From an uncultured Gammaproteobacteria bacterium (GTDB lineage: Bacteria; Pseudomonadota; Gammaproteobacteria; SG8-11), in NCBI GenBank assembly GCA_964654485.1, contig CAZZJI010000004.1:1104-65103 (forward strand): a stretch of DNA of 64,000 bases, in the 5' to 3' direction. Shown piece by piece: positions 43,836 to 64,000 of the stretch. Below the pieces are notes generated by a model. That model saw only the letters and a program-made list of their open reading frames with translations. It made no database searches and was not told where the DNA came from. Positions within the stretch are counted from its first letter, which is position 1; each line of letters starts with the position of its first letter. The position numbers were made by a program, and so were the translations under genes.

Positions 43836-44951
43836 ATGGTTAGAACAGGAACGAGTACTACTAAACAACAAATGATTATAAAACACGCATCACACCGCCT
43901 TTTTTTGTCGCAAATATTACTCATATTATTGTTAATAGTCGGGTTCTTTTTGAGCTTCGGCAGCGTAATTGCCGAAGATGCCGCCGCTACCAATGATAAA
44001 AAGACACTCGTAGATACCCACCATAAGCGCTCTCGACAATGCTTCGAATGCCATTTGGATGTTGAAAGTCCGGCGTTCAAAACAATCTTGAAAAATAATT
44101 GTATTGAATGCCATAAATCCGGCTGGGTGAAGGGAAAGCTGGAGCAATTAGCTAAAGAACCCGACATGTCCAATTCGTTAGCCACTGAAAAAGCCAGTGG
44201 ACAGGGTCCTGGTATGAACGTGCCGATGTACTATGAAAATAGCAAACTTGGCGATAAACTCAACGAATTAATATTGATTCCTGCGGGTGATTTTATTCGC
44301 GGGACAAATAATAGGCTACCCGATGAAGGGCCTCAGCATGTCGTGAATGTGAAGGCATTTTATATCGACAAATACGAAGTAACCAATCTTCAATACAAAA
44401 AATTTCTGGATTCAACGGGACATATACCACCTAGTTTATTTATCCAAGGAATGCCCCCAAAAGGCAAAGTAGACCACCCAGTCGTTTATGTTTCCTGGTT
44501 TGATGCTAAAAAATATTGTGGCTGGGCTGGCAAGCGCTTACCTGATGATAAGGAGTGGGAAAAAGCCGCACGTGGTACCGATGGGCGCAGTTACCCCTGG
44601 GGTGACGAATTCAGTATTGAACGTGTCAACTCACCTGTTAGATGGTCAAATTTGAATCTGATCGGTGATACAACGCCCGCAGGGGCCTTTGATGGCGGGG
44701 TAAGTCCATACGGGCTACACGACACGTCAGGTAACGTATGGGAATGGACCTCTTCCCGCTATGAAGCCTATCCTGGCAATAAGCGAAAATCTGAAAATTA
44801 CGGTGGTAATTATCGCACACTTAAAGGCGGTTCATGGTGGGATTGTTCTTTTTATCAATGTGGTATCTCCGCACCACTGTATAATCGCAGCTTCTTTCAT
44901 CCAAAAACAAAAAATAACAGTTTTGGTTTTCGTTGTGCAAAAGATGGATAA
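43836..44951 (+). CDS. Fusion of an N-terminal diheme c-type cytochrome module with a formylglycine-generating-enzyme (FGE-sulfatase/SUMF1/PvdO/NirV-like) domain
   Basis: 371 aa with a signal/TM segment. The heme motifs are CFECH and CIECH. The FGE domain follows (IPAGDFIRG...YEVTNLQY...GNVWEWTSS...GGSW... and C-terminal FGFRCA). Confidence 0.8.
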   Translation: MVRTGTSTTKQQMIIKHASHRLFLSQILLILLLIVGFFLSFGSVIAEDAAATNDKKTLVDTHHKRSRQCFECHLDVESPAFKTILKNNCIECHKSGWVKGKLEQLAKEPDMSNSLATEKASGQGPGMNVPMYYENSKLGDKLNELILIPAGDFIRGTNNRLPDEGPQHVVNVKAFYIDKYEVTNLQYKKFLDSTGHIPPSLFIQGMPPKGKVDHPVVYVSWFDAKKYCGWAGKRLPDDKEWEKAARGTDGRSYPWGDEFSIERVNSPVRWSNLNLIGDTTPAGAFDGGVSPYGLHDTSGNVWEWTSSRYEAYPGNKRKSENYGGNYRTLKGGSWWDCSFYQCGISAPLYNRSFFHPKTKNNSFGFRCAKDG

Positions 44952-45006
44952 CATTGTTTCATAACACCAAATTACAAAAATCAAACCCCAAACACCAAGG
45001 GAAATT

Positions 45007-45891
45007 ATGAGAAAACAATTTTTTGAGCCTATTTTTCCTATTTTTCTTAGTGCGTGTTTAACCCTTGCCGCATGCAGCAAGGATGATGGCTCGCAACAAA
45101 AAAATTCCTCGCCTACGGCGTCACAACTTACGTTACAAACAAAACAAACTGCGCCAACGATAACCGGCATGGTCTACATCCCAGCAGGGGAATTTGTAAT
45201 GGGCAGTAATGATGTTGATGCAAGTGGTAAATCCGAAGAATTCGGGTTTAACGAACCCTGGTATTTGAACGAACATCCACAACACACGGTTTTTCTGGAT
45301 GCATTTTATATTGATAAAAATGAAGTCACCAATGGGAATTATAAATCTTTTCTGCTGTTAACTGGTCAATACAATACAGAGCAAATAAACGATATCCTGA
45401 AAAAATTTAACCTGGCAGAAAGCAAAGAACCTTTGAGGAACGTCAATTGGCACGATGCTAGCAGCTTCTGCAAAATAATAGGAAAGCGATTGCCTACTGA
45501 GGCAGAGTGGGAAAAAGCAGCACGTGGACCTGATGGACTGGAATTTCCCTGGGGCAATGAATGGAAGCCTGACTACCTAAATGCCGGCGGTGAAGAAATT
45601 GATGTGATGCCAGTAGGGTCATATGAAAAAGGCAAATCTCCTTACGGCGTATACGATATGGCAGGCAACCTAATGGAATGGGTTGAAGACTGGTACCAAG
45701 CATACCCTGGCGCGGATTATAAAAGCCCGCGCTATGGCAAACAACGAAAAGTGGCTCGTGGCGGTAGTTGGGGTGGCATCGGCCATTACGTGATACCTCA
45801 TTATTTCCGTACGGCGTATCGATATAATTATCCTGCGGACAAGGCTTTTAATGATATCGGGTTTCGTTGTGCAAAGGATGTATCTAAATAA
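45007..45891 (+). CDS. FGE-sulfatase (SUMF1-like) domain lipoprotein
   Basis: 294 aa. The lipobox is LAACSKD. The FGE signature is MVYIPAGEFVMGS...NEVTNGNY...GNLMEWVED...RGGSW...IGFRCA. Confidence 0.8.
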   Translation: MRKQFFEPIFPIFLSACLTLAACSKDDGSQQKNSSPTASQLTLQTKQTAPTITGMVYIPAGEFVMGSNDVDASGKSEEFGFNEPWYLNEHPQHTVFLDAFYIDKNEVTNGNYKSFLLLTGQYNTEQINDILKKFNLAESKEPLRNVNWHDASSFCKIIGKRLPTEAEWEKAARGPDGLEFPWGNEWKPDYLNAGGEEIDVMPVGSYEKGKSPYGVYDMAGNLMEWVEDWYQAYPGADYKSPRYGKQRKVARGGSWGGIGHYVIPHYFRTAYRYNYPADKAFNDIGFRCAKDVSK

Positions 45892-45897
45892 ATTCGT

Positions 45898-46728
45898 ATG
45901 CCCCTATTAGCTTTTTTTTTCTACTTTTTATTCAGTGCCTCTGCCCTGGCAAAAGAAAACAATACCACTATAGAAATTAATTATTTCACAGACAAATTGA
46001 CTGATGGCACTGATGGCCCTGAAATGGTTTGGATACCCGCGGGTAATTTTACGATGGGCGACATACAAGGCGTTGGATTGGATGATGAAGTGCCGCCTCA
46101 TAAAATAAATATTAAAAAACGTTTTGCTCTTGGAAAATACCCGATCACATTTTTAGAATATGATTTGTTTTGTGAAAAAACAAACCGTACTAAAGCATAT
46201 GATCATGGCTGGGGAAGAGGCAAGCGGCCTGTTATTCATATTAACTGGTTAGATGCGATAGCCTATACTGAGTGGTTAAGCCAGCAAACAGGAAAAAAGT
46301 ATCGCTTACCAACGGAAGCGGAATGGGAATATGCAGCCCGGGCTGGATCGAAAACGAACTACTGGTGGGGAAACAAAATGCTGCCAGGCATGGCATATTG
46401 TTTTAAATGCGGTGACACAATAGAAAAAAACCAAACAATTACTGTAGGCCGCTTTCCAGCTAACTCATTTGGACTATATGATGTCGTCGGCAACGTTTGG
46501 GAATGGACGGCGTCAAAATGGACTCAAACGTATTTTGGAGAAGAATTAAAACAAATTAACAACAATGAAGTTGTAATTGCTGCTAACCATCTAGAAGCAG
46601 CACAACTCGCCATGCGCGGGGGCGCCTGGAACCTCCAGGAAAAATTTAACCGTTCTTCATCTCGGTATTATGGCGCACCGAAGGCGCGTAACATGAACTT
46701 AGGTTTTAGAATTGCCCGATCGGAATAA
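45898..46728 (+). CDS. FGE-sulfatase (SUMF1-like) domain protein, secreted
   Basis: 276 aa with a signal peptide. The signature is MVWIPAGNFTMGD...GNVWEWTAS...RGGAW...LGFRIA. Confidence 0.8.
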   Translation: MPLLAFFFYFLFSASALAKENNTTIEINYFTDKLTDGTDGPEMVWIPAGNFTMGDIQGVGLDDEVPPHKINIKKRFALGKYPITFLEYDLFCEKTNRTKAYDHGWGRGKRPVIHINWLDAIAYTEWLSQQTGKKYRLPTEAEWEYAARAGSKTNYWWGNKMLPGMAYCFKCGDTIEKNQTITVGRFPANSFGLYDVVGNVWEWTASKWTQTYFGEELKQINNNEVVIAANHLEAAQLAMRGGAWNLQEKFNRSSSRYYGAPKARNMNLGFRIARSE

Positions 46729-46770
46729 AATTACTCGGCGTAGAAAACAAACCCTACGAAGACAGTAAAT

Positions 46771-47700
46771 TTATTTTGTTCTTGCCACACGAAACCCGAC
46801 TGTACTCCACGCTTCGTGCGGCAGTATTACGCCTCTATTTGCAGATCGCATATCTACAATAAAATTATACCAGGAACCACCGCGGATAACCCTTACGCCT
46901 TCATCAAGCCCTTTATTTGAACTAACCAGCTCACTACCGTCATAGAACCCCACATAGTCTGACGCGACCCACTCCCAAACATTTCCGCTAACATCATATA
47001 ACCCGAATGGGTTCGCTAAATAGCTGCCCACAGGCACGGTCTCAACTGTACGCCAATGCGCAAAAAAAAACCGACACCTGGCTTGTTGGCAATCGCCGCT
47101 GTTACCGTTACCCCACCAGTAGCTCGTTTCAGTGCCACCACGAGCGGCATACTCCCATTCCGCTTCCGTTGGCAAACGGTATTGCTTTTCTGTTTGCTGA
47201 CTTAACCAATTGATATATGCAATTGCATCACCCCAGGACACACAAACAACCGGGTGATTATCCTTCTGCCGAAAAAGAGGATTATACCATGCGGCTTCTT
47301 TTTGCTCATGCCACACGACTTTGCGTGCAATGCAACCATCGTTCAACTCGGCTCTTGTTCGATAACCGGTTTTTTCCACAAACAATCGAAATTCTGCCAC
47401 CGTCGTTTCATATTTCGCTAACGCAAAGGGCTGTGACATTTTCACCGAGCGAATAGGCTCTTCATCGCCATCTGTCTGGTCGCTACTAATGTTCCCCATA
47501 CGAAAAATACCTGATGGTATCCACACCATTTCAGGCCCCTGCAGCCCTATATTTAACTTATCTCTAAATACAGAACCGGTATCCGCATCCCAAACAATTT
47601 TTACTGTCGTGCAGGCCGTATTTAACGAGAAAAAGACACATAATTGGAGAATTAAATAACATTTATTGAATAAATTTCCAAGCGTGAATATCTTCTCCAT
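46771..47700 (-). CDS. FGE-sulfatase (SUMF1-like) domain protein, secreted. It is the last gene of the long minus-strand array.
   Basis: 309 aa. The signature is MVWIPSGIFRMGN...GNVWEWVAS...RGGSW...VGFRVA. Confidence 0.8.
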   Translation of the reverse strand: MEKIFTLGNLFNKCYLILQLCVFFSLNTACTTVKIVWDADTGSVFRDKLNIGLQGPEMVWIPSGIFRMGNISSDQTDGDEEPIRSVKMSQPFALAKYETTVAEFRLFVEKTGYRTRAELNDGCIARKVVWHEQKEAAWYNPLFRQKDNHPVVCVSWGDAIAYINWLSQQTEKQYRLPTEAEWEYAARGGTETSYWWGNGNSGDCQQARCRFFFAHWRTVETVPVGSYLANPFGLYDVSGNVWEWVASDYVGFYDGSELVSSNKGLDEGVRVIRGGSWYNFIVDMRSANRGVILPHEAWSTVGFRVARTK

Positions 47701-47763
47701 ACTGGACTACCTTGTCATCACATTCAATTCGCAAAAACGACAAAGGATTATAAAAATGCCAAA

Positions 47764-49173
47764 TCAGGACGCATGAGCCAACTCAGGAAACGGCAAATAC
47801 TTTTTATTAAAAAACTGCATTGCCACTTCATCCGCAAAAAATCGACCACGTGGTGTCAAGAAAACTTTTTCATCATCTTCACCCAGCAAGCCCAATTTTT
47901 TCAGGCGAGCAATTGTGTCGCCAAAAAACGCTTCCACGGTCTCGCCTGTAGCCCGGTTAAATGATTGTTTATGTACAAAACTGTTTTTCAACGGCAAAAT
48001 AAATCGTCTGCGTATCTCATCATCGTGCGTTCTGACCATCCCGCGATTAACAGATACCTTACCCTCATCCACAAGCTGATAATAATTTTCTAAGTTATCA
48101 TCACCCACATTGAGCGAAAACACACCGCGCAGGTTCGACCAGGAAGAAACACCGACTCCTATTACATCGGAAAGATGGCAACATGAATCGCGCAAATAAT
48201 GCGATATATCTTTTTCCTTTTTGGCAAAAATTCGCGTTTGCCGCTCGTCAAATCCATTATCTCTTGAAATAATCAGGCCTAACATTTTCATAACATAGAT
48301 ATCATCAACTTGCGGAAATGTATTCGCTTTTTTATTATAAACTTTTAATATATTCCCCGGCCTGTCACCATGCGGTTTAATACGCAATCGATATAATTGA
48401 TAACCCTCAATATCCAAAGTAACAGCTTCTTGCATTGTCTCAACCCACTGCAGCAAATTTTGCTCAGGGTAACCATAGATAAGATCAATGAATATATTGT
48501 CGATACCCGCTTTACGAATCTGCTCTATGGCCTTCAACGTATCCGCATGAGTGTGAACGCGCCCCATGCGCGCCAATATTGAGTCATCAAATGATTGCAC
48601 ACCCATACTCAATCTATTTACACCGTAATCCTTCATTATTTTTAATTTTTCCAGACCATCTTCACCCAGTATTGTTGTTGGCTCCGGCTCCAGAGAAAAC
48701 TGGGTACAATTGGTTAAATCAAAATGAGTGGTAAATGCTTTTAAAAATCTCTCCATTTGTTTAGCAGATAAATAGGAGGGTGTACCACCGCCTATCAGTA
48801 CTGCATCCACCGGAATTTGCTCCATACCCAATTTTGAGCGGTATAAACCCATCTCTTTCTCCAAGTGGTCAAGATAATTATCCACTTCCTCCGGGCGACT
48901 TTTGGTTTTTGTAATCCAGTGGCAAAAAGTACAACGTGACGGACAAAACGGTATATGCACATAGGCAATCATAGGATTAGCGGGGCGTTCATTTATCTCG
49001 GCAAGAATTGGTTTTTCATCCATTTGCGGATACATTGTCAACGGCGGATAGCCGATAACAGGAAAAAATTTCCCGTCTGTAGGCAGAATGCCAGATGTTT
49101 TTACCTTATCAAGGCCCAGTTCACCCAATTCCATCTTAGCTTTTTCAATCCAGTTTTGTACATCCATAATCAA
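47764..49173 (-). CDS. Radical SAM enzyme of the HemN-like family (oxygen-independent coproporphyrinogen oxidase/HemW/ChuW-like)
   Basis: 469 aa. It has the CPSRCTFC radical SAM cysteine triad inside YVHIPFCPSRCTFCHW, the GGGTPS motif, and a HemN-like C-terminal domain. It lies 20 nt downstream of the double-propeller gene. Confidence 0.75.
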   Translation of the reverse strand: MIMDVQNWIEKAKMELGELGLDKVKTSGILPTDGKFFPVIGYPPLTMYPQMDEKPILAEINERPANPMIAYVHIPFCPSRCTFCHWITKTKSRPEEVDNYLDHLEKEMGLYRSKLGMEQIPVDAVLIGGGTPSYLSAKQMERFLKAFTTHFDLTNCTQFSLEPEPTTILGEDGLEKLKIMKDYGVNRLSMGVQSFDDSILARMGRVHTHADTLKAIEQIRKAGIDNIFIDLIYGYPEQNLLQWVETMQEAVTLDIEGYQLYRLRIKPHGDRPGNILKVYNKKANTFPQVDDIYVMKMLGLIISRDNGFDERQTRIFAKKEKDISHYLRDSCCHLSDVIGVGVSSWSNLRGVFSLNVGDDNLENYYQLVDEGKVSVNRGMVRTHDDEIRRRFILPLKNSFVHKQSFNRATGETVEAFFGDTIARLKKLGLLGEDDEKVFLTPRGRFFADEVAMQFFNKKYLPFPELAHAS

Positions 49174-49192
49174 CCTTTCAACTTAACGCTTA

Positions 49193-51310: not shown

Positions 51311-51466
51311 TATCCGGTTAAACCACCGTATAGTTGTTGAAACACGTACGCACGTAAATCAGTTGCGACACTAACTCGGGTAAGTAGCAGAAAACAGATC
51401 TTGGTTTAGAAAGAAGGAACAAAAAGAGTACCTAAAAACTAATTAAATACTAAAAACAATAAATGT

Positions 51467-54265
51467 TTACGGCACATTAGTACACGCCTCACTACTCATC
51501 GCCATCCAAAACACACCCGTAGCCCCGTTACCTGGCGCTCCGACTGAACCACAATTGGCTACCGTCCAGTTACCACTGAGTGCAAAACTAGTGACCTTTA
51601 ATACAGCTCTATTATAATAGGGACCATTAAAATACCCTGCTCTACCATCACCTGCGGGACCATTTCGAACCTGGACGCCCGATCTGTTAAATCCACCTTC
51701 AAATCCAACGTCATTTAGATTGACAAGAAAAGCCTTGTTTTTCCAACCATGCGGGACTGCAATATGACATAAATTACAGCGAAAGTTTGACACAGCATTC
51801 GCATGAAAAGTATGTAAATTCTGCGTATTCGGCATACACATCATTCCACCGCCACCACCGCTCATACGACCGCCGCCCATGCCGCCGCCGCCCATGCCAC
51901 CGCCGCCCATCATACACATACCACCACCACCACCCAGTGAAAACCCACTATTTTGAGGAAAAGCCGGTGACGGATTGCCGTATTGATTATATCGATGGCA
52001 TTTAAAACATAAATGCGTTGGCTGGCCGATACCGGTTCCGGTTGTGCGTCCACCACTCCACGGACCTTTTAACAGAAAATCATTCTCTGAACCATGCGGT
52101 CCCCAGACACGTCCATCATCACCTGCACCACCACCGCCGGTATTGCCCGTTGGAACTGATGTGCCGTTGTTGGTATCAGAACCATGGCAATCCGTGCAAT
52201 ACATGGTTTGCACACCCACAGCCAGATTAAACGGTGAGGTCCAATTGAGTTGGTTTGCATCACGAATCGCAGGTGTTCTGCCGGTGGACCTAACAACCGG
52301 ATGCCAACTACGATGATTGTTTATAGCAAATGCAGCGCCAGCGCCACTGTTAGGGGCGGTGCCTTCACCCTGATGTTCGACAGGAGAATTATATTCGCTC
52401 GCCTGATTGGTGTACTGCGTCATTTCGTTAGTACCAGATGGGGTACCACCGACAAATGAACCCAACATCGGCGGTGTATTGCCATACGCATAATTTGAGT
52501 GACACTTAAAACAAACCTGGTACTCGCGTGTTACGTAAGGGCTGGAGGTACCATCGTCACCGGGTGGCGCATCAATCGGTGGGCTGCCTCTTTTAATCGC
52601 GAAAGTAATCTGCGCATTAGGAACAGCATTAAAATTGGGGCCTGCGTAAATGGGTTCGACGCCCCATATACCCCTTAAAACACCGGAAGCGACATTAGTA
52701 TGCATTCTAACACCTCCAACAACTGCAAGGTCCGCGTCATTATGCGGGTGTGTGCCCGCTGGACCGGGATTAGCTGGGTCAGCGTTAAATAAACGATTTT
52801 TGATCACGCGGTGCGGATTATGGCAATCGGTACATTCGGCATGTCGATTAGCCAAACGCGTTTGGCTCTCGATAAAATCTTTACCGGCCTGCGGGATGCC
52901 GGGTGCATCACCTATATTGTGAACCTCTTCTGGACTATTCACCCCGAGAGACTGGTCGTCGGTGGTAATCGGCATGCGTGTTGCCAATGTAGTAAAGTCA
53001 GTTTTAATATCCGGCACTTCTGTACCAAGACCTTGGGCGGTTAATGTATTACCATCTGATGAGTGACAGGCGTAACAAGTTTGTTCAATCGCAGGTCGGC
53101 CACCCTGTTTAACCAGGTAACCACCAACAGAAACAGTAGGTCCATCTGTGCCTTCGCGCGTCAGACGTCGTGCACCCTGTACAGTGTGAGTATCATGGCA
53201 TGCAAGACAAGCCGATTCCCATGTTCGTGTACCCAATGGGAATTCTCGTACATTGGCCGCCGCATCCGTGTATATCTCATCAGCGACATCAGGATTAGCA
53301 TGTGCAGAATCAACCCAACCTGCTTTGAGGTGACAGGCAATACAGATAATATCGGCGTTAGTTCCGACGGGTGTACCTGGATTAAACCCAACATCCGCAG
53401 GTCGAGTCGATTGCAATCGGCTCAAACGTAAAAACTTAATATTCTGCTCTAATGTATCATCTCGAATATGCGGATCATGGCAGGTATTACATTGAACCTG
53501 CCCTTGCCCACCAGAATCATCCTGTAGAGGAACGATAGGCGCTGGTTGCCCACGAACCCGGGTACCAAGATGTGACTCTACTGCCGGGTCACGCATTTCA
53601 CCGTCTGCTGCCGCGAGCGCACTATCATACGTCATCGAAATGGGGTGATCATTTGTCAAATCAGTGCCAAGAAAACGAGTAAAACCAGAAAGCCGCCCAC
53701 TGGGGCCTTCAGCGATGGCACCACCCGCAATGGTGCCCGTCATCGCTATATCCTCTGTGGTACCGATTCGATCAGTAAAACGACCTTCAAATACATTGAC
53801 CGCGCCCACAGCCATTGTGCCATCATGGCACGACAGACACAGTTTCGAGATACCTGTCGGTTGTTGTAATGGCTGGCCCGGGCCAATCGCCGAATCCAGC
53901 GATCCTGAACTATAGGTAGGATACTGCGCACCAGATAATTCGCGGTTCCACAATGGACCCTCACTTACCGTGCCACCATGCGGGGCATGGCAAAAAACAC
54001 AAATTTGATTTTCTGTTACTGCCGAGACAACTCGACTTGCCCCCCCAGGCAGTTTTGGAGCAAAATCCGCAGAAAAATTATGTTTGGTATTGGAAATGTC
54101 AGAGATTCGCGCTGCGTGCGCATCAATTGAAAAAGTGGGTACGATACAAATAGCCGCCGTATAGACTAAAATCGCAGTTAATAAAACCGGGAAATATCCA
54201 TTGAAATAAGCATTTAGCTTGGCGCCGCCATAGGAAGAACGACTAAAAATCTTGCACACCCTCAT
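51467..54265 (-). CDS. Giant 11-heme c-type cytochrome (doubled-CXXCH family N-terminus) with a Met/Gly-rich insert
   Basis: 932 aa with an N-terminal TM/signal segment and 11 CXXCH motifs (CVFCH, CLSCH, CNTCH, CIACH, CLACH, CYACH, CTDCH x2, CFKCH x2, CNLCH). The N-terminus shares the HNF...C.FCH.PH / LCLSCHDGT module with the pentaheme paralogs. The insert is GGGGGMCMMGGGGMGGGGMGGGRMSGGGGGMMCM. Confidence 0.85.
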   Translation of the reverse strand: MRVCKIFSRSSYGGAKLNAYFNGYFPVLLTAILVYTAAICIVPTFSIDAHAARISDISNTKHNFSADFAPKLPGGASRVVSAVTENQICVFCHAPHGGTVSEGPLWNRELSGAQYPTYSSGSLDSAIGPGQPLQQPTGISKLCLSCHDGTMAVGAVNVFEGRFTDRIGTTEDIAMTGTIAGGAIAEGPSGRLSGFTRFLGTDLTNDHPISMTYDSALAAADGEMRDPAVESHLGTRVRGQPAPIVPLQDDSGGQGQVQCNTCHDPHIRDDTLEQNIKFLRLSRLQSTRPADVGFNPGTPVGTNADIICIACHLKAGWVDSAHANPDVADEIYTDAAANVREFPLGTRTWESACLACHDTHTVQGARRLTREGTDGPTVSVGGYLVKQGGRPAIEQTCYACHSSDGNTLTAQGLGTEVPDIKTDFTTLATRMPITTDDQSLGVNSPEEVHNIGDAPGIPQAGKDFIESQTRLANRHAECTDCHNPHRVIKNRLFNADPANPGPAGTHPHNDADLAVVGGVRMHTNVASGVLRGIWGVEPIYAGPNFNAVPNAQITFAIKRGSPPIDAPPGDDGTSSPYVTREYQVCFKCHSNYAYGNTPPMLGSFVGGTPSGTNEMTQYTNQASEYNSPVEHQGEGTAPNSGAGAAFAINNHRSWHPVVRSTGRTPAIRDANQLNWTSPFNLAVGVQTMYCTDCHGSDTNNGTSVPTGNTGGGGAGDDGRVWGPHGSENDFLLKGPWSGGRTTGTGIGQPTHLCFKCHRYNQYGNPSPAFPQNSGFSLGGGGGMCMMGGGGMGGGGMGGGRMSGGGGGMMCMPNTQNLHTFHANAVSNFRCNLCHIAVPHGWKNKAFLVNLNDVGFEGGFNRSGVQVRNGPAGDGRAGYFNGPYYNRAVLKVTSFALSGNWTVANCGSVGAPGNGATGVFWMAMSSEACTNVP
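51836..51934. repeat. Imperfect 15-bp tandem repeat (catgccgccgccgcc-type units) that encodes the Met/Gly-rich insert of the 11-heme cytochrome
   Basis: Read directly on the plus strand: ...catacgaccgccgcccatgccgccgccgcccatgccaccgccgcccatcat... Confidence 0.75.
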
Positions 54266-55705: not shown

Positions 55706-56824
55706 TTACTGAACTTTAAAAAGATTCTGATCTAATCCGTCTTCCGGAACCACATCGAAAACCTGCACCCGTCTATTTAAGCTATCAGCAACATATAATT
55801 GCTGCTCTTTTGACATCCACATATCAGTAATCGATCGAAAACGACCTGGCGCTGAACCGCTACCCCCTAGCGTCGCGATGAGTCTGATATCATCATAAAC
55901 TCTGATTGTGTTATCGGATTTATCGCTAACATAGACACGCTGTTCCTTATCCAATGCAATCGCGGTTGGCCAGATCAAATCGCCTTCACCCAGACTAAAT
56001 CTGAATCGTCCGGCTGCGCCAGGATCCAATCCCAATTCTTGCACGGGTAACTCAAGACGGTCAGCTATAAAAATACTATTACTTCTTCCTTTCGCTATTG
56101 CAGTAATCGCACGAAATTTTCCTGGTCCCGTTCCACGTGATCCAACGGCACTTAATGGAATACCTAATTTGCTAAATATCACTACGTGACTGAAACTACC
56201 ATCGGCCACATACACTTGACCCGTTAAATCATCAACCATAACATCGATTGGCCGCGATAAATTTACCAGATCACTGTACTGGCGAATTAAATTGCCCAAT
56301 TCATCAAAATACAAAACACGCTTGCCAACTGGGTCCGTTATATAAAAACTCAAATCGGATTCAACGTAAATACTCGTCGGCTCACCTTTAAGCTGCTGGC
56401 CAGCGACACCGAGAACTTCTATCGTTTCGTCAACAGTATTATATCGATAAATAGAAGAGTCACCGCCATCAACGATGTAAAGAAAATTACCGTAACCACC
56501 AACCGCGACGGGTTTTATAAATTTAACTTGCTGACCATCACCACCAACAATAATGCGAGTAAATTCGCCAACCGCACCGTCCAGCTTTAACTTACCACCG
56601 CGTATAATACCTGATGGTCTCAAGACTTCCGGCTCATCACTGCGTTTAAAACGAAGATTTGGCGACGTAGCTGCTGCTGCGGATCCGTCCTCAGATGACT
56701 GTTCACCATCTGTAACTGCTTTTTTAAATTCCGCTAAAGTACAACCAGTAGTTGCCCCAATGAACAAAAAAATTAAACTGGCAATAACGATCAGCAACGG
56801 CGTCAACGTACGTCCAGTTAACAT
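55706..56824 (-). CDS. NHL-repeat beta-propeller lipoprotein. The probable start is the Met at about 56824; the ORF-track start at 56893 overlaps the upstream gene.
   Basis: The lipobox is LFIGATTGC. The blades are LYIVDGGDSSIYRYN, FYITDPVGKRVLYFD, VYVADGSFSHVVIFS, IFIADRLELPVQ, VYVSDKSDNTIRVYD and LYVADSLNRRVQVFD. Confidence 0.8.
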   Translation of the reverse strand: MLTGRTLTPLLIVIASLIFLFIGATTGCTLAEFKKAVTDGEQSSEDGSAAAATSPNLRFKRSDEPEVLRPSGIIRGGKLKLDGAVGEFTRIIVGGDGQQVKFIKPVAVGGYGNFLYIVDGGDSSIYRYNTVDETIEVLGVAGQQLKGEPTSIYVESDLSFYITDPVGKRVLYFDELGNLIRQYSDLVNLSRPIDVMVDDLTGQVYVADGSFSHVVIFSKLGIPLSAVGSRGTGPGKFRAITAIAKGRSNSIFIADRLELPVQELGLDPGAAGRFRFSLGEGDLIWPTAIALDKEQRVYVSDKSDNTIRVYDDIRLIATLGGSGSAPGRFRSITDMWMSKEQQLYVADSLNRRVQVFDVVPEDGLDQNLFKVQ

Positions 56825-56829
56825 TATCC

Positions 56830-56870
56830 TGGTTAGCGAAGACCTACGCCTGATTAGCGAAGACCTACGC
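56830..56870. repeat. 20-bp tandem duplication (ttagcgaagacctacgc x2) covering the stop codon of the triheme cytochrome gene and the 5' UTR of the NHL gene
   Basis: Read directly as ggttagcgaagacctacgcctgattagcgaagacctacgctttcg. The second copy contains the TAA stop of the 56854-57495 gene. Confidence 0.8.
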
Positions 56871-57495
56871 TTTCGCGCGGAACACTGTGACATCGATTAC
56901 ACTCCAATGGAGGAAAGGCGACTTTGCCATGGCACACACCACAATATTCACCTTCAATTATTGCCGCCATAGTGACAAAATTACCGCCACGTTGCGGTAA
57001 AAATATTCCAGGATGGCAGTTTTTGCATGTGAGCCATTTAGTATGCGGTAAATGAGGAAATCGAACATAAGGCATAGACGCGGTATTTCGAAAAATAACA
57101 TCAAAATCCACTGAATGCATTTTCTCTTCACCAGTGATGCCGGTGCGCGGTGAAATCAGGCCTTTGTTCAGTGTTTCTACCCAATTTATGACACCACGTT
57201 TATCACGCGGGAAATTAGCCATCGCTTCAGCTGGCGGTTGCAAGATCTTAACTGCATCATTTGTTGGATCATGCACACCATCTTCAGCGATCGAAACGAC
57301 ATCCCCATGTAATTGAAAATGACCCGTGCCTTCTTCGCCAATGGCCGGGCCAAATACAAACATACACACTGTAAAAAACAATGTTGATATATACCTATAT
57401 ACAACCATACCCTTTCTCGCGCCCATTAATTCGACTTCATTCACCCATCGTGTTGTATAAAATCTTTTTGCCCTTTTACTATATATGCCATACAC
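56854..57495 (-). CDS. Small triheme c-type cytochrome, secreted (paralog family A)
   Basis: 213 aa with a signal peptide. The heme motifs are CKNCHPGIFLPQR, CGVCHGKVAFP and CNRCHS. The HTKWLTC..CHP..F.PQR..N..TMAAI..GE.CGVCHGKV.FP...C..CHS pattern is shared with the genes at 59613 and 60321. Confidence 0.85.
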   Translation of the reverse strand: MYGIYSKRAKRFYTTRWVNEVELMGARKGMVVYRYISTLFFTVCMFVFGPAIGEEGTGHFQLHGDVVSIAEDGVHDPTNDAVKILQPPAEAMANFPRDKRGVINWVETLNKGLISPRTGITGEEKMHSVDFDVIFRNTASMPYVRFPHLPHTKWLTCKNCHPGIFLPQRGGNFVTMAAIIEGEYCGVCHGKVAFPPLECNRCHSVPRESVGLR

Positions 57496-57621: not shown

Positions 57622-59190
57622 CTACTGACTTACCCCTGCTATGCGCAATGCACGCCTGACTTGGGTTGTAGCCGACAACATCATCGCAATAGCTGTTGGA
57701 AAATCACCTTGCTTTGCTTTTTTAATTGCATCATCGCGCTGACTTCTTCCTTTCACAACGAATCCATCCATAAGTTTCACGGCACCCGGCGCTGGTTTTT
57801 TCCTGGCAATGGCGACAGGTACTAATTCTTCATAACCGGCAAATCGCTTTAATTCATATTGATATTCTTCTTCTGCCGTTTCAAAATTCAGATCATATAC
57901 AATTGTTTGGGAATCAAGCATAACATTGATCGCACTAGTCACGATATTTTCTGCTTTTTCTAACAAAGGAATCGCCTTTAAGTATTTACGTGTATCAGCA
58001 AATGTCTTCGCTTCTTGTAGCAAAGATGTGACTTCTTTTTTGTCGTAATCAACCACTGCCTGTTTGCCACGTGTTTTAACCGTTTGATCCTTGCTTATCT
58101 TATGCGATTGCTCAAAGTTCTTTACAGAATCAAGCAATTCCATATACCGGGCATTTCTTTCCTCTAAGACCTCTTCGCTTGGCACTAACCTGGATGACGT
58201 ACCAATCAAGCGTAATACATCATCTGCAAAAGCCAACGCTTTCTCATTATCACCGGAAGAAAGGTGCTTGCGCGCTTTACCCATTTTTTCCCTAGCCGAA
58301 TTCAACATATTTTTTGCTTCTTTATTATTACTTGCATCTACGCGCTTGGTACCTTTAGACACAAGCATCATGTCAGCAAACGTCATTTTCTGCTTAAGCT
58401 TTGCGATAGAAACTTTCGCTTTTGTTGCTTTCGAGGACTTACCTGCACTTGCTGTAGAAATCTTAACACTCGCAATTAATTTATTGATTTTCGCTTCAGA
58501 TGCATCCTTGTTGACGACAAATATCTTGCCCCCCATTGCGCTGTGGTTTTGACATTGATAATAAATGACATCCGGCATCTTATTGTCAGGCGTTATTTCT
58601 ATTATACCTTTGTAGGTAAACTGCCCCTTAATCCCATCTATAACCACACCGCCACCCCAGCCTACTGGACTCGTGGAAAAATAAACGTCATGCAATACAT
58701 CAGTTCGGACATCAAATTGATAGCGTTCACCACGTCGCATGGCGATTGTTTTTCCTTGCACATCATCCAATGAAAAACCTAATATATGCCCTTTGCCAAA
58801 TGAAGGATGTGATTCATTTTTTTCCGCCACGGTGACTATATAATAATTCGGATCCAATTTTTTGGACGACACATCAGGTTTTTTTGCTTCCGCTGGCTTA
58901 TCAACGGGCGCGGGTTGAATCTCTGAAGTGACATCGGCGGGCATTTCTGTTACTTCGGGAATAGTCGTAATCGGCAACGGCTGCACCATTACAATGGGTT
59001 CATCCGGGGAAACATCATCTTCCTTCGCTTTTGCCTGTTGTTCTTTTTCTTTAGCTGAGGGTTCAACCGGAGCTTCAATGATAGTTGCTGACTGCTCGGC
59101 GGGCATCTGTTCGTTTTTATCGAGCGAGCCGCACGCGGGCACAAAAAGAAAGACTATGAAAAAAAGGGTAAATTTAATGTTCGAGTTCAT
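57622..59190 (-). CDS. Lipoprotein with an amicyanin/plastocyanin-like cupredoxin domain (predicted type 1 copper site) plus a long C-terminal helical domain of unknown function
   Basis: 522 aa. The lipobox is FVPACGS. A Pro/Glu-rich linker follows. The cupredoxin signature is GKGHILGF...YYQCQNHSAMGGKIFVV, with Cys-x2-His-x2-Met spacing as in amicyanin. Confidence 0.55.
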   Translation of the reverse strand: MNSNIKFTLFFIVFLFVPACGSLDKNEQMPAEQSATIIEAPVEPSAKEKEQQAKAKEDDVSPDEPIVMVQPLPITTIPEVTEMPADVTSEIQPAPVDKPAEAKKPDVSSKKLDPNYYIVTVAEKNESHPSFGKGHILGFSLDDVQGKTIAMRRGERYQFDVRTDVLHDVYFSTSPVGWGGGVVIDGIKGQFTYKGIIEITPDNKMPDVIYYQCQNHSAMGGKIFVVNKDASEAKINKLIASVKISTASAGKSSKATKAKVSIAKLKQKMTFADMMLVSKGTKRVDASNNKEAKNMLNSAREKMGKARKHLSSGDNEKALAFADDVLRLIGTSSRLVPSEEVLEERNARYMELLDSVKNFEQSHKISKDQTVKTRGKQAVVDYDKKEVTSLLQEAKTFADTRKYLKAIPLLEKAENIVTSAINVMLDSQTIVYDLNFETAEEEYQYELKRFAGYEELVPVAIARKKPAPGAVKLMDGFVVKGRSQRDDAIKKAKQGDFPTAIAMMLSATTQVRRALRIAGVSQ

Positions 59191-59513
59191 GGCTAATCAC
59201 CTGAGAAAATTGATCTAACGCGGGTTCATGATTGGCTTAAGCGTAGGACCATCCTGAACCTGACTACCTTATCCAGACCATATAAATATCCAGACCCATA
59301 TAAATATAATTCAGTGCATTCTCTATCTCTCCTGTTCGCACTGCCAACTTATCTTGTTATCGGCAAAAAATCGAATTGATTGATTGATACTTTCCTCTAA
59401 TAATGCATTAAAAATTGCTCTGTTGTTGCTCTATGTAAAAGTGCAACCGTCAAAACAAACCAATACTTTTAAAATGGAATTTATCAACCAAAAACTATTT
59501 ACCTCAGTTAATT

Positions 59514-59555
59514 AAGCTTAAAAATACAAACGGTGCAGGTTAAATCACCTGCACC
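59514..59555 (-). terminator. Rho-independent terminator downstream of the triheme cytochrome gene at 59613-60305
   Basis: On the minus strand a perfect 9-bp stem (GGTGCAGGT gattta ACCTGCACC) is followed by gtttgtatttttaag. Confidence 0.7.
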
Positions 59556-59612
59556 GCTGAGTTTTCTGCACTTCTTTCATCTGATAAAAGTACAGCTAGG
59601 TAAAGGTACCAA

Positions 59613-60305
59613 TTACCTCCAGGGGTTTTTAACACTCGCCTGACTCAAAGGTGGTTTCCAATTTTTTGGTTTGGGTTTGGAATGGCATTTTTTGCACGAC
59701 TTAGTGGTAACCGGAAAAGACACTTTACCGTGACACACGCCGCATTTTTCACCCAAAAGTATTGCAGACATCGTTATCTGGTTCGCATTTCTTTGTGGAA
59801 TGAAAATCTTTGGGTGGCAATTGGAACAATGCAACCATTGTGTATGCGGTTTGTGTGGAAAAACCACATCCGGCATGGATGCTTTTACTTCACGCACAAT
59901 GTCTAAATCCATAATAAGTGGCTCAACGGTAGGATCTATACGATCATAGCGAGGCTTCAAATAGCCCTTGTCGAGTGATTGCACCCAATCGACGTAATTA
60001 CCAAATGGCGTCGTTGGTAAGCCTTTGTAAGATATTTTCGGCGGTTGCAGCACATGCGTACCTTCATTAGCCGGATCATGAATACCGTCCTCCGCTGGCG
60101 GTGCATTTTTTTCCTTATCCTTTTTAAGCAGGCGATTAAAAACATTCGCCTTGGTCACATTGCCGCTTTGACCTTGAACGGGCTTTAATTTCATCGTTTT
60201 CTTTGTTGCACCGACTTCAGCCGCGTAAACATTCGCCATAGCAAATGTTAAACCAAACGCACAAACGGTACAGGCAGCCGCTAACAACCTATTGATTTTA
60301 TTCAT
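59613..60305 (-). CDS. Small triheme c-type cytochrome, secreted (paralog family A)
   Basis: 230 aa with a signal peptide. The heme motifs are CSNCHPKIFIPQR, CGVCHGKVSFP and CKKCHS. Confidence 0.85.
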   Translation of the reverse strand: MNKINRLLAAACTVCAFGLTFAMANVYAAEVGATKKTMKLKPVQGQSGNVTKANVFNRLLKKDKEKNAPPAEDGIHDPANEGTHVLQPPKISYKGLPTTPFGNYVDWVQSLDKGYLKPRYDRIDPTVEPLIMDLDIVREVKASMPDVVFPHKPHTQWLHCSNCHPKIFIPQRNANQITMSAILLGEKCGVCHGKVSFPVTTKSCKKCHSKPKPKNWKPPLSQASVKNPWR

Positions 60306-60320
60306 TTTTATTTCATCCCC

Positions 60321-60764
60321 TTATTGCGCGCTCTTTACACCACCTGGCAGCGCTTTATACTGTGGCGCGACTAAACGTTGAATCGTACTCCCGTGGATCT
60401 GTGTCGGTGTTCCAGGAATGCCCGAGTGACACATTCCACAGTTTTCCACGGACCAGGCAATTTCACCGTTATGACAGGCGCCGCAAAATTGGCCGTCAAT
60501 AATTTTAGCCATCGTGATCTTGTTTCCACCTGCTTTAAATTTAAACCCGAGATCGGCATGGCATACTTTGCAGCGAAATCTAATACGATGATACCAATGC
60601 GGAAATACGGCGGGTCGCATACCTGCGGCATCAGCATAATTATTTATTACTACATCCGCGTACTCTGCCTGTGCAGATTGTGGGATCATTATGACGCTAA
60701 GACTGCTTATTAAAGCAAATAAAATTGCCTTCCATTTCACGAGATATTCCAAAAGTGATCTCAT
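60321..60764 (-). CDS. Small triheme c-type cytochrome, secreted (shorter member of paralog family A)
   Basis: 147 aa with a signal peptide. The heme motifs are CKVCHADLGF, CGACHNGEIAW and CGMCHSG. Confidence 0.85.
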   Translation of the reverse strand: MRSLLEYLVKWKAILFALISSLSVIMIPQSAQAEYADVVINNYADAAGMRPAVFPHWYHRIRFRCKVCHADLGFKFKAGGNKITMAKIIDGQFCGACHNGEIAWSVENCGMCHSGIPGTPTQIHGSTIQRLVAPQYKALPGGVKSAQ

Positions 60765-60875
60765 ATCAACCTAACTCCCCTATTATTTATTAGAATTTAA
60801 CCAAATACTATAATTTTTCTTTACCATATTACAAGGGTAAAGCGCATTTTCTAATACCTGTGATCTTACACGACT

Positions 60876-62765
60876 CTAGAAGCTTCGTGTAGCCGAAAAG
60901 TTAACACCAAGCGTCCTTTCTCCTTCAGGAGCTTCAGTTATTCGGATATTAAGCTTGGTTGATAATAAACCAATTGCGTAGGAAAATGAATTTACCCAGG
61001 TTAGATTCCCTCTTTGTGAATCTCCATCTGCTAACAACCTTTCTTGTCTTAATGTCGAGGCATAAGTTAACGCAAATACACCAAATAACCGACTATGGCG
61101 GTAGGCAAACCGGATAGAAGCAGATTCTTCTGTATCTGAGGCCCCAGGTTCGATCGTCAAGGGATTGTCAGTTTTAGAAGCTTGATAATTAAAATTTCCG
61201 GATGCTGAACTAAGACGATTTATCCCCTGATTTCGGGCTAGTGAGAGTGAAGCTAATTGAAATACTACCCCGTCCTCTTCGAGTGTCCGTGAGTCAGAAA
61301 CAGCAACGTTGAAAATTGTGTTGCCACCCCAACCCAGGTGATTCACGCTGGTATTAAAACTTATAGAATGTGCTTTAGTCAGCTCGTCTGTTTCTGTATC
61401 CTCCGTGGATAAAGTCGAATCATTGTCATCTGGAAAACGTTTTGAAACGGCTAAATTTTCTGAAAAACCAAAATTTAAATTTCCACTGTCGAATAGCCAG
61501 GATCTGCTCGCGGCATGACCAATTGACACACTGGCGCTTTGACTACTGGTTTTCGTGTCCTCTACGGGGGGGACTGCAGCCGGATTGCCGTCCAGTTTAC
61601 TATTTGCATTACTGACACTACCGCTCAAGTTCCAGTTATAAAAAAAATCAAAAATGGTCGTCGGGGAGGAAAAAAAACCGATTGTTCCAATTTCGGAGGA
61701 ATTAAGTGACTGCCTACCTTCAGATTCACTTGAATTAGCATTAATCGTTAAATTACCACGTATTTGGCGAGAAAATATATACGACATCGTTAAACCGATG
61801 CCTACCGCACTAGTCTCGACACTGTCCCGAACGCTATTGTCGGTCGTCGTTTTGGAAAAACGCGCACCACCTGACACGGAATAGGGTTTATGCTCAGGTC
61901 GCCAAGAGGCGCTTGTGGACACCTGATTAACCGACGACTCACTACCAGAACCGCCCACCGATTCCGATTTAGACGTGGAATGGCTGAATAATGAAGTAAT
62001 CCCCATTTCTGCACTTGGTAAATACCCGTGCGTCGCGGTTAACGATAAGCTTGTGGAATTATTACCAACATCCTGTTGTTCTGTATCAATATAACTACTA
62101 TCAATACTATAACGCTGTTTAGCCCAGGATCGATTAACGCGTAACCCGGCAATGCTGGATAGAAAATTGCTAAACAATGACTCGAAATCAGATCGATTAT
62201 AGAAAAAATTGATATGCGTACGATCATATGTTGTATACGCCTGTGATATCCCTATGCGTCTGGTCTTGGTTATCAGCGTCGTGGATAACAAACCTTCCTC
62301 TGCATTTGATATACTTTCTGACTCATTTCGACTAAGCGCATAGGTTAATCGAAAAGGAAAGCGACTTAGTGGGAAAACCGCAAACGCCAGATTAACAGTA
62401 TTGGATGTAAAATTACTCTCAGGCGCGTTACTACTGGTGCTCTCACTTGTTGCCAGCCCGAAACCCAACCCTGCTGACATAGTGGCAAACCACGGTCGCC
62501 AAATAGCGCTGTTACCAGCGACATTAACCCTGATCAAATTAACTTCTGATTCCCGATTATTGGTTTTATTAAAACTGTATGTATAACCTATACTTCCGCT
62601 TAAATTTAAACCGTAGGGATCATAAAATTCAGCTCGAGCGGACGTTTGCCCAATCAAGAGCAAGGACAGCCCCAAAAAGCACAATTGAAAAAATTTCGAA
62701 TTCCTCAGTACGGGCTTGTTTACTATCACTACTCCAAACACTCCCCAAAGCGGTTGCCAATACAC
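60876..62765 (-). CDS. Large putative outer-membrane beta-barrel protein (porin-like), secreted
   Basis: 629 aa with a signal peptide (FLGLSLLLIGQTSARA). It has an amphipathic alternating pattern, is rich in Ser, Thr, Asn and Gly, and has the C-terminal aromatic residue (…ATRSF) typical of OMP beta-barrels. Confidence 0.55.
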   Translation of the reverse strand: MYWQPLWGVFGVVIVNKPVLRNSKFFQLCFLGLSLLLIGQTSARAEFYDPYGLNLSGSIGYTYSFNKTNNRESEVNLIRVNVAGNSAIWRPWFATMSAGLGFGLATSESTSSNAPESNFTSNTVNLAFAVFPLSRFPFRLTYALSRNESESISNAEEGLLSTTLITKTRRIGISQAYTTYDRTHINFFYNRSDFESLFSNFLSSIAGLRVNRSWAKQRYSIDSSYIDTEQQDVGNNSTSLSLTATHGYLPSAEMGITSLFSHSTSKSESVGGSGSESSVNQVSTSASWRPEHKPYSVSGGARFSKTTTDNSVRDSVETSAVGIGLTMSYIFSRQIRGNLTINANSSESEGRQSLNSSEIGTIGFFSSPTTIFDFFYNWNLSGSVSNANSKLDGNPAAVPPVEDTKTSSQSASVSIGHAASRSWLFDSGNLNFGFSENLAVSKRFPDDNDSTLSTEDTETDELTKAHSISFNTSVNHLGWGGNTIFNVAVSDSRTLEEDGVVFQLASLSLARNQGINRLSSASGNFNYQASKTDNPLTIEPGASDTEESASIRFAYRHSRLFGVFALTYASTLRQERLLADGDSQRGNLTWVNSFSYAIGLLSTKLNIRITEAPEGERTLGVNFSATRSF

Positions 62766-63186
62766 AAAGTCCTTTTAAAAAAGCAAAATTAAAACTGTGC
62801 CTTGCCGCTTACATTCATTTTATCTTTGGGTCTTTTGAACAGCCAACTTTCTTATATAGATAATAAATACAGTTACTCTAAATAATACGTCGCCAGAACA
62901 AAGTATACGTAACCCGGAACACCCTCAAAAACAAACCCGGGAATGATCAAGAATCTGTCCCAGGAAACTTAATATTGGCTTATTAGTTAATATTTATATA
63001 CTAATTCCACACCAACTAATCGTAAGAAAAAACATCAAATAAGTAAAAAAATCTTCGCATACAAATGATTACAATACATATGATTATTATATTAAATTAC
63101 ATAATATAGCAACGCACAACAACATGCTCGATAAATAAACAGTTCGGCGAATAAATGAGTGCGATATTAAAAAGTCGTCACTTAGG

Positions 63187-64000
63187 CTACTTCTGCACAA
63201 CCTTATATACTGACTTATCCACATCTATTTTTGTCTCAGATCTGAGTTTTTTTATCAAATCCACCCAGGCTTTTTGCCCACGCTCGCGCTTAACAAGGCC
63301 TATTACGGTATCTTTAACCCGCTCATAGCTGTTGATCGTGATTGCTATACGTTCATCAAGCCTGAAAATAGCCACGCCCTGCAGGATAACAACAGGCTCT
63401 GAGACATCTCCAGGATCCATAATATCGATAATTTCTTGTGCTGGCTTAGCGAGCATACCCTTATGTATGTAACCCATATCTCCGCCTTGTGGAGCCGAAT
63501 CATCACCGGAGTGAATTCGCGCCATTTCAGCAAAGTCGGCACCATTTCTTAATTGCGCCACCAATTCATTGGCTTGTTCCGTCGTATCTCGCCATACCTG
63601 ACTGCCTGACGAAGGATCTACTTTTAATAAAATTGTGAAAACGCGCAATTGCTCTGGAATCGTAAATTTATCAGGATTATTTTCAAAGTGAGCCTGAAGA
63701 TCTTTTTCTTGCGGAGGACCGACTTCCTTAACCTTTTTCTCCAGTAGCTTAATCAAGCTATCATGTTCATATTCTTCCCGAATGCCAGGTAAAAGTAGAT
63801 CTCTGTTCTGCTCCCAATTTTTGTCGTTTTCTTTTTTTCTTTTCGCTTCAAATCTCTCAATCTTATTATCAACCACCTCTTTATCTGGTTTAATACCCTG
63901 TCGTTTCGCTTCCCGAACCAATAAAACCCGGTTGATATATTCTTGTCCTACCTGTTCACGAAATTGTTCCATTTCTTTGTCAGGCACTTTTGCGTGAAAA
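63187..64000 (-). CDS. SurA/PpiD-like periplasmic chaperone with a parvulin-type PPIase domain. The N-terminus runs off the window end.
   Basis: The parvulin signature is GGDMGYIHKGMLAKPAQEIIDIMDPGDVSEPVVILQGVAIFRLDER. The frame stays open past the GTG at 63985-63987 to position 64000. Confidence 0.65.
   Translation of the reverse strand, partial: FHAKVPDKEMEQFREQVGQEYINRVLLVREAKRQGIKPDKEVVDNKIERFEAKRKKENDKNWEQNRDLLLPGIREEYEHDSLIKLLEKKVKEVGPPQEKDLQAHFENNPDKFTIPEQLRVFTILLKVDPSSGSQVWRDTTEQANELVAQLRNGADFAEMARIHSGDDSAPQGGDMGYIHKGMLAKPAQEIIDIMDPGDVSEPVVILQGVAIFRLDERIAITINSYERVKDTVIGLVKRERGQKAWVDLIKKLRSETKIDVDKSVYKVVQK

Follow-up and report, generated by a model that had tools for sequence, protein, structure and literature searches.

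Does the long run of cytochrome, beta-barrel and propeller genes that fills one end of a 64,000-nt stretch of DNA from an uncultured gammaproteobacterium (contig CAZZJI010000004.1; the whole stretch is called the window below) encode an electron-transfer machine that has not been described before, or a known one in an unfamiliar setting? A preliminary description of this locus favored the former and proposed a copper-associated machine of the porin-cytochrome type. Tables of open reading frames (ORFs), Pfam and NCBIfam profile searches and motif counts on the window proteins bear out the inventory on which that proposal was built. Twelve co-directional ORFs occupy the minus strand from 63987 down to 46771, and three plus-strand ORFs between 43836 and 46728, all encoding proteins of the formylglycine-generating enzyme (FGE) fold, converge on them. 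The three triheme proteins contain 3, 3 and 3 CXXCH motifs, the 932-aa protein 11 and the first plus-strand FGE protein 2, the last of these being the predicted fusion with a diheme cytochrome (43836-44951). The porin-cytochrome anatomy is also present, with a large barrel, triheme and large multiheme cytochromes, a blue-copper lipoprotein and propellers. The twelve genes do run in one direction, but the gaps between them are not uniformly short, ranging from –40 to 422 bp with two of about 420 bp and one of 291 bp. In addition, the minus-strand array is interrupted by the window end at base 64000, where its first ORF is still open, so that the SurA-like chaperone gene cannot be said to open it.

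What does not survive is the claim of an undescribed arrangement. Judged by sequence and gene order, nine of the twelve genes (63987 to 51467) are uetB-uetJ of the named Uet (undecaheme electron transfer) cluster, which was published in exactly this order, on the basis of bioinformatics and expression, in a comparative genomics study of the Tenderiales that named it for Candidatus Tenderia electrophaga (Eddie et al., 2022; bioRxiv 10.1101/2022.05.06.490989 / mSphere). In that study, UetA is a tetraheme cytochrome, UetB a peptidyl-prolyl isomerase, UetC a 28-strand beta-barrel, UetD, UetE and UetG triheme c7 cytochromes, UetF a cupredoxin, UetH and UetI NHL proteins and UetJ the undecaheme cytochrome, and uetA-J are followed in Tenderia by ccsAB, nrfG and batABD (10.1101/2022.05.06.490989). 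Uet has also been reported in Gallionella (PMC10734462) and Leptothrix (PMC13386937) and is cited in a 2025 review. The undescribed machine is therefore a rediscovery of Uet; what is new is an extended, clade-specific form of the cluster.

The identification is made because the gene order from B to J matches the published list and because the proteins pair one to one with those of Ca. Tenderia sp. Reciprocal BLAST of the ORFs of Ca. Tenderia sp. (locus L014) and SZUA-140 (L005) against all window ORFs gave one-to-one reciprocal best hits for UetB-UetJ, CcsB, CcsA and the TPR protein (labels such as L003-L082 denote contigs with UetJ or propeller homologs). Identity to Ca. Tenderia sp. is highest for the triheme cytochromes and lowest for the barrel (Table 1). 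The features expected of Uet members were found in each case: 11 CXXCH motifs in UetJ, 28 strands in UetC, three triheme cytochromes, a cupredoxin in UetF, NHL repeats in UetH and UetI, and a peptidyl-prolyl isomerase in UetB. The position of uetA lies beyond base 64000, and the best window match of the L014 UetA is an unrelated pentaheme gene (20665-21723, 29% identity). While the order B-J is identical to the published one, ccsB-ccsA-TPR is present but lies 14 kb away from uetJ, and neither bat genes nor Bat or VWA domains were found among the scanned window ORFs.

The same order recurs well outside this genome. A scan of GTDB species genomes with UetJ, the 932-aa protein, matched at least 585 genomes, from which 80 loci were retained and compared with the window by tblastn of all window proteins. 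By this comparison, the canonical order (A)-B-C-D-E-F-G-H-I-J-ResB-CcsA is found in Gamma-, Beta- and Alphaproteobacteria, Magnetococcales and Nitrospinota, including two metagenome-assembled genomes (MAGs) of Ca. Tenderia sp. Genes B, C, D, E and I lie co-directionally upstream of the UetJ homolog in 38 of the 56 loci with at least 9 kb of upstream sequence, an arrangement far from chance, and a ResB-like gene lies downstream of uetJ in 54 of 65 genome loci. The propeller, radical SAM and FGE genes are co-conserved with the core in related contigs. The UetJ homolog search returned >5000 matches, and the closest GTDB species representatives share only 53-54% identity with the window UetJ.

Together with the uet order, UetJ homologs in at least 585 species genomes reach well beyond the published Tenderiales (with neighboring orders), Gallionella and Leptothrix. 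Cultured carriers include Sphaerotilus mobilis DSM 10617 (L043) and Hydrogenophaga sp. RWCD_12 (L039), both with complete clusters, as well as Motiliproteus sediminis HS6 and Aromatoleum evansii KB740, and further homologs occur in MAGs labeled Nitrospinota, Magnetococcales, Myxococcota, Thiodiazotropha and Woeseiaceae. On a distant UetJ branch, A. evansii KB740 (L082, 1-11540) and L066 (9659-21363) have a compact, co-directional and nearly abutting gene set without uetB-I, in which two 11-heme UetJ-like genes, separated by a gene for a protein of about 460 aa, precede a ResB-like gene and two FGE-fold genes.

Structure prediction agrees with the reading of the 629-aa UetC as a beta-barrel. 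An AlphaFold2 (AF2) model built from a 13-sequence alignment reaches a predicted local distance difference test score (pLDDT) of 80 and has 28 long antiparallel strands; the C-terminal residue is F (Phe), and Foldseek matched the model to large outer-membrane barrels only, with the highest query-normalized template modeling score (TMq, 0.35) for MtrB (6r2q_B). No Pfam or NCBIfam family, including MtrB_PioB, matched UetC. UetF is likewise without a Pfam match. Its N-terminal domain (about aa 117-225) contains H167, C213, H216 and M219 (C-x2-H-x2-M), which are invariant among 15 homologs, and the profile of this domain weakly matches pseudoazurin 3tu6 (E = 0.037) over a span that covers exactly the C-x2-H-x2-M motif. 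Because a plain PDB sequence search gave nothing relevant and the pseudoazurin match is weak, the cupredoxin call rests mainly on the invariant ligand motif. The C-terminal helical domain (about aa 264-520) is conserved, and comparison with loci L017-L081 showed that this domain of about 260 aa is the only part of UetF kept across the whole Uet family, so that the cupredoxin domain would be a clade-specific addition. Distant Uet clusters often have two tandem copies of the C-terminal domain without any cupredoxin domain.

Between its hemes 10 and 11, UetJ carries a (GGGM)n insert (residues 778-809). The long form of this loop, bracketed by MCMM and MMCM, was found only in contigs that also encode the cytochrome-FGE fusion, and Tenderia lacks it. 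We rejected the insert as a defined Cu(I) site, since it is a hypervariable low-complexity loop in which only the two flanking cysteines are conserved, and those only within the subclade; a role in copper binding is speculative. Of the copper theme in the preliminary description, the intact copper site of one FGE protein and the type 1 copper ligands of UetF stand, whereas the Met-rich Cu(I) motif and the analogy with NirV are conjectural.

A terminator-like hairpin is located about 40-55 nt past the uetE stop codon, and it is conserved in sequence and position in L083 (4526-4554), whose UetJ is 75% identical. This hairpin may serve as an attenuator and thereby hold the levels of the uetD and uetE transcripts far above those of uetF-J. 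On cathodes, the triheme genes rank with the most strongly expressed genes of Tenderia, whose undecaheme cytochrome is a candidate route of extracellular electron transfer (EET) (PMC5371394).

Based on its architecture and on the expression data, Uet is predicted to be an outer-membrane electron conduit, and we infer each functional step in the window from domain content, orthology, synteny, clade restriction and the conservation of catalytic residues. The 28-strand UetC barrel would span the outer membrane, and UetJ, with the tetraheme UetA encoded outside the window, would move electrons across or beyond it. The triheme cytochromes and the blue-copper UetF would serve as periplasmic relays, the NHL lipoproteins UetH and UetI as scaffolds and UetB as an assembly chaperone. 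The ccsB-ccsA-TPR genes, a system II cytochrome maturation module that lies directly 3' of uetJ in most genomes, would provide for maturation of the cytochromes. The published model has the cbb3 oxidase and the alternative complex III (ACIII) or bc1 complexes as electron targets (10.1101/2022.05.06.490989). Electrons would enter from a cathode or mineral in Tenderia, and probably in the same direction here.

The direction could also be reversed, with respiratory electrons delivered to metal oxides or partner cells, or the conduit could be bidirectional like Mtr/Mto. Homologous clusters are also present in organisms that are not recognized lithoautotrophs, such as Aromatoleum evansii, Motiliproteus sediminis and MAGs of Colwellia and Neptunomonas, which is consistent with such a role, and Mto/Mtr conduits can be reversible according to the literature (PMC10734462). 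However, the sole physiological data come from a cathode-oxidizing organism, and both the cbb3-type (CcoP-like) cytochromes encoded nearby in the window and the high-potential blue-copper protein fit aerobic uptake; we regard the outward reading as unlikely. Overall, we consider it probable that the region is the uetB-uetJ conduit cluster of an uncultured gammaproteobacterium related to the Tenderiales and neighboring orders, with a lineage-specific module between uetJ and ccsBA.

Comparison with known systems places the window closest to the Uet cluster of Tenderia. Both share uetB-uetJ content and order, orthologous proteins, a 28-strand barrel, 11+3+3+3 hemes, the UetF cupredoxin, ccsB-ccsA-TPR, Ccm genes and a secondary cytochrome/NHL cluster nearby; the window differs by the 14-kb block between uetJ and ccsB, the long Cys-bracketed Gly/Met loop of UetJ and the bat genes, which were not found. 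In the Tenderiales study, a Ccm operon precedes a 'secondary c-type cytochrome cluster' made up of CcoP-like, pentaheme, triheme, NHL and periplasmic sensor-domain proteins (10.1101/2022.05.06.490989), and positions 15-34 kb of the window match this pair. The cytochromes at 15-26 kb, which had been taken for a continuation of the array, thus belong to that published secondary cluster and are not an extension of one operon. MtrCAB, MtoAB and PioAB follow the same logic of a large outer-membrane barrel, multiheme c-type cytochromes and periplasmic relays, and MtrB is the solved structure that UetC matches best. In contrast, the window barrel has 28 strands rather than 26, and the cluster adds triheme c7 cytochromes, a cupredoxin, NHL propellers and system II maturation. 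Membership in the MtrAB/MtoAB/PioAB group was rejected on the missing MtrB_PioB match of UetC and on the score of UetJ against TIGR03508 (DmsE/MtrA decaheme), which is 28.1 bits with a cut-off of 192.2. In Desulfovibrio ferrophilus (DFE_0448-0465) and Geobacter clusters, multiheme cytochromes also occur with NHL-repeat proteins, which are thought to stabilize outer-membrane cytochrome complexes (cited in 10.1101/2022.05.06.490989), and Geobacter GSU1996-type proteins share the c7-type triheme domain (TIGR04257) with the window trihemes. These anaerobic Desulfobacterota have other cytochromes and lack the cupredoxin, the UetC-type barrel and the FGE genes, a distinction drawn without sequence comparison.

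What, then, is the material that separates uetJ from ccsB in the window? Relative to Tenderia, a block of 14.1 kb (37362-51466) has been placed there, containing a double propeller, a HemN-like radical SAM protein, the FGE-fold protein FGE309, the three convergent FGE genes, an SsuA-type ABC transporter, an EamA protein, a methyltransferase and ICMT-like membrane genes. This block is a clade-specific, co-conserved extension of Uet and not noise, which upholds the assignment of the propeller, radical SAM and FGE genes to the same system as the core. The propeller gene lies directly 3' of uetJ in at least 10 independent contigs. Moreover, the uetJ-propeller pair is duplicated in tandem as a unit, two to three times within one uet cluster, in five loci (L004, L012, L030, L090 and L091), which suggests paralogous cytochrome-propeller pairs. 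All UetJ proteins linked to a propeller gene group together in one clade of a neighbor-joining tree built from 91 UetJ sequences, and the sister of this clade is the one that contains Tenderia. The AF2 model of the propeller (pLDDT 92.9, predicted TM-score 0.90) shows a tandem 7+7 arrangement. A metagenome scan centered on the propeller returned mainly unrelated single lactonase propellers from soil, and about 6 loci were informative.

Downstream of the propeller, the order uetJ-propeller-radical SAM-FGE309 is found in the window and in L083, L171 and L173, with radical SAM proteins 62-80% identical and FGE309 kept after the radical SAM gene in all three contigs; L171 also has a convergent homolog of FGE276. 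The radical SAM protein has the CxxxCxxC core and a HemN_C domain and scores 191.6 with HemW (cut-off 205.4), 186.1 with HemN (325) and 210.3 with STM4012 (380); its structure-database matches are HemN 1olt (E = 2e-33) and NocN, a class C methyltransferase (1e-31). Radical SAM-like matches in L022 and L034 share 28% identity and lie about 6 kb off on the other strand; they were judged to be generic HemN/HemW genes and rejected as members of the block. A second sub-arrangement consists of FGE294 and the cytochrome-FGE fusion, which lie as a pair between the propeller gene and ccsB in the window and in L087, L167, L169 and L170. The pair is convergent to the propeller gene and stands directly upstream of, and divergent from, ccsB-ccsA-TPR-thioredoxin. 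In these four contigs, the FGE294 homologs are 61-65% identical, and the fusion, at 68-80%, is more conserved than UetJ (55-61%) and the propeller (44-48%). Both sub-arrangements are present together in the window.

Each of the four FGE proteins is exported, two of them as lipoproteins. The Cys pair of FGE is present only in the fusion (43836-44951), where the pair in GGSWWDCSFYQC aligns with the catalytic, copper-binding C336/C341 of human FGE (1y1e) and the GGS, WEW and R positions are conserved as well. The pair is missing from the other three FGE proteins, which resemble PvdO most, at scores far under the PvdO cut-off. An exhaustive search for diheme-FGE fusions yielded at least 8 further clusters at 50% identity with the signature GGSW[YW]DCx[FY]YxCGISAP (members P0289, P0304, P0320, P0322, P0329, P0346 and P0357), one of them additionally fused to a UbiA-like membrane domain. 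In our literature search, neither a connection of FGE with multiheme cytochromes or EET nor a description of a diheme-FGE family came up, and the fusion with its intact copper site belongs to a broader family that seems to be undescribed. As in the human pair of SUMF1/FGE and pFGE (SUMF2), a protein with the FGE fold and Cys pair is encoded here beside a Cys-less paralog. It differs from SUMF1/FGE in being exported, in carrying a diheme cytochrome c and in having cytochromes and maturation genes as partners, with no sulfatase or CxPxR substrate nearby.

Alternatively, the core could be Uet while the propeller, radical SAM and FGE genes are unrelated passengers, the FGE genes serving organosulfur or sulfatase metabolism with the SsuA-type transporter and the radical SAM protein being a general HemW chaperone or coproporphyrinogen dehydrogenase. 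The FGE domain family is huge (148,727 representatives), Tenderia and most genomes are entirely without the block, and the fusion gene starts 83 bp past the ABC permease gene of a transporter whose binding protein best matches the SsuA family. However, the transporter is absent in L087, L167 and L170, where the FGE pair still lies between the propeller gene and ccsB, and four independent contigs repeat the propeller-radical SAM-FGE309 order. At the distant loci L066 and L082 (A. evansii KB740), too, FGE genes come after two UetJ-like undecaheme genes and a ResB-like gene, and the export of all four FGE proteins sets them apart from cytoplasmic bacterial FGEs. On balance, the passenger explanation seems improbable, and we retain the view that the block is an extension of Uet.

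As to what the extension does, the double propeller would be a docking, shielding or structural partner of extracellular UetJ in a one-to-one complex, because its gene is always adjacent to uetJ and co-duplicated with it. The fusion may be a periplasmic, copper-dependent and O2-using oxidase of the FGE type that draws electrons from its own cytochrome domain, and the radical SAM protein and PvdO-like FGE lipoproteins may be helpers in heme handling or maturation. A more specific proposal is that the Uet conduit of this clade has gained its own copper- and O2-dependent protein-modifying step, in which the FGE domain of the fusion is fed by Uet electrons and acts on a Uet component, with the propeller as a partner subunit of UetJ. 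Clade-specific cysteines are confined to the pair that flanks the Gly/Met-rich UetJ loop, and this loop co-occurs with the fusion. We hold this proposal in its entirety to be distinctly unlikely.

Several observations weigh against the conduit reading or its extension. The conduit model comes from prediction and expression data, and in no organism has a Uet protein been purified, localized or deleted. By sequence, UetC belongs to none of the barrel families, and its matches to solved barrels are weak (TM-score at most 0.35). Heterotrophs and denitrifiers, such as Aromatoleum, Sphaerotilus, Motiliproteus and Colwellia MAGs, also have UetJ homologs, and electroautotrophic uptake therefore cannot be the general role. 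The propeller has neither Cys residues nor a recognizable active site, and its fold matches generic scaffold or tandem propellers. The radical SAM protein falls below every curated NCBIfam cut-off, just under that of HemW. No Uet protein in the window contains the CxPxR target motif of FGE, a search for C/S-x-P/A-x-R found only S-A-P-G-R in UetH, and no sulfatase domain was found in the window. The position of the fusion gene downstream of the SsuA-type transporter gene could mean a different operon. Finally, a reading of Uet as a redox enzyme complex of the periplasm or cell surface that works on a soluble or polymeric substrate, with catalytic propellers and FGE oxidase, relaying cytochromes and the barrel as substrate channel, is highly unlikely: each cluster has three to four propeller proteins and up to four of the FGE fold, PvdO-like proteins are annotated as periplasmic dehydrogenases, and the propeller resembles subunits of heme enzymes in NCBIfam (hydrazine synthase beta, QH-amine dehydrogenase beta and L-NosZ), but these scores are far below the cut-offs, the Cys-free propeller has scaffold-like fold matches only, and the combination of barrel and multiheme cytochromes parallels known conduits.

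Table 1. Coordinates of the uet genes, the block genes and the maturation module in the window, with identity to the Ca. Tenderia sp. ortholog (L014)
Feature	Position	Strand	Identity	Evidence and remarks
uetB, peptidyl-prolyl isomerase (SurA/PpiD-like), partial	63187..64000	-	40%	Pfam Rotamase (PPIC), weak SurA_N; frame open to base 64000 (ORF listed 63187-63987); reciprocal best match L014:1327-2334
uetC, 629-aa outer-membrane beta-barrel, 28 strands (predicted)	60876..62765	-	26%	AF2 model, Foldseek, reciprocal best match
uetD, c7-type triheme cytochrome	60321..60764	-	78%	3 CXXCH; TIGR04257 64.9 bits (cut-off 40)
uetE, c7-type triheme cytochrome	59613..60305	-	73%	3 CXXCH; TIGR04257 63.4 bits
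Terminator-like hairpin in uetE-uetF gap (422 bp)	59529..59558	-		12-bp stem and T-run, z = -5.3
uetF, 522-aa lipoprotein, cupredoxin-like with C-terminal helical domain	57622..59190	-	35%	Lipobox FVPAC; invariant ligand set; pseudoazurin profile match
uetG, c7-type triheme cytochrome	56854..57495	-	67%	3 CXXCH; TIGR04257 61.3 bits
uetH, NHL-repeat propeller lipoprotein	55706..56893	-	40%	Pfam NHL; lipobox; reciprocal best match
uetI, NHL-repeat six-bladed propeller lipoprotein	54557..55654	-	53%	Pfam NHL and DUF5128; reciprocal best match
uetJ, 932-aa undecaheme cytochrome c	51467..54265	-	49%	11 CXXCH; reciprocal best match L014:9908-12625
Secreted tandem double 7-bladed (lactonase-type) beta-propeller, 705 aa	49193..51310	-		Pfam Lactonase; AF2 pLDDT 92.9
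Cytoplasmic HemN/HemW-like radical SAM protein	47764..49173	-		Pfam Radical_SAM and HemN_C
FGE309, FGE-fold lipoprotein, PvdO-like, without catalytic Cys pair	46771..47700	-		PF03781; lipobox; PvdO model 162 bits (cut-off 500)
FGE276, secreted FGE-fold protein, PvdO-like, without Cys pair	45898..46728	+		PF03781
FGE294, FGE-fold lipoprotein without Cys pair, partner gene of cytochrome-FGE fusion	45007..45891	+		PF03781
Exported diheme cytochrome c-FGE fusion, copper-binding Cys pair kept	43836..44951	+		2 CXXCH; PF03781 E = 7.5e-58
ccsB (ResB-like, 36327-37361), ccsA (35440-36330) and TPR (nrfG-like, 34805-35662)	34805..37361	-	48-56% (L014 and L005)	Pfam; reciprocal best matches to L014 and L005

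Some gene boundaries and neighbors deserve mention. For uetG, public assemblies have two gene calls (184 or 213 aa), and the longest ORF of uetH shares 40 nt with uetG, which leaves the true starts of both genes uncertain. Positions 37709-43753 hold several genes with no evident link to Uet: those for an EamA transporter, a class I methyltransferase and a 424-aa multi-pass membrane protein whose C-terminus is ICMT/PEMT-like, and those for the binding protein, ATPase and permease of the SsuA-family ABC transporter. At 2484-7634, two sensor histidine kinases, one of them a hybrid with CHASE5, PAS and two receiver domains, flank a solute-binding-like protein, and these kinases may regulate the neighboring respiratory genes. 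No tRNA was found in the 64-kb window.

Few candidate routes are known for the uptake of electrons from electrodes and minerals by aerobic chemolithoautotrophs, and Uet is one of them. Our analysis adds to this picture a wider distribution, including cultured isolates in which genetics is feasible, an extended form with a double propeller, a recurrent link with FGE proteins and a conserved hairpin after uetE, which may be the reason why the triheme cytochromes are expressed so strongly. If the protein-modifying step proposed above were true, an extracellular electron conduit would for the first time have a described step of post-translational maturation or regulation, and the cytochrome-FGE fusion would offer a natural case of the long-sought physiological reductant for FGE.

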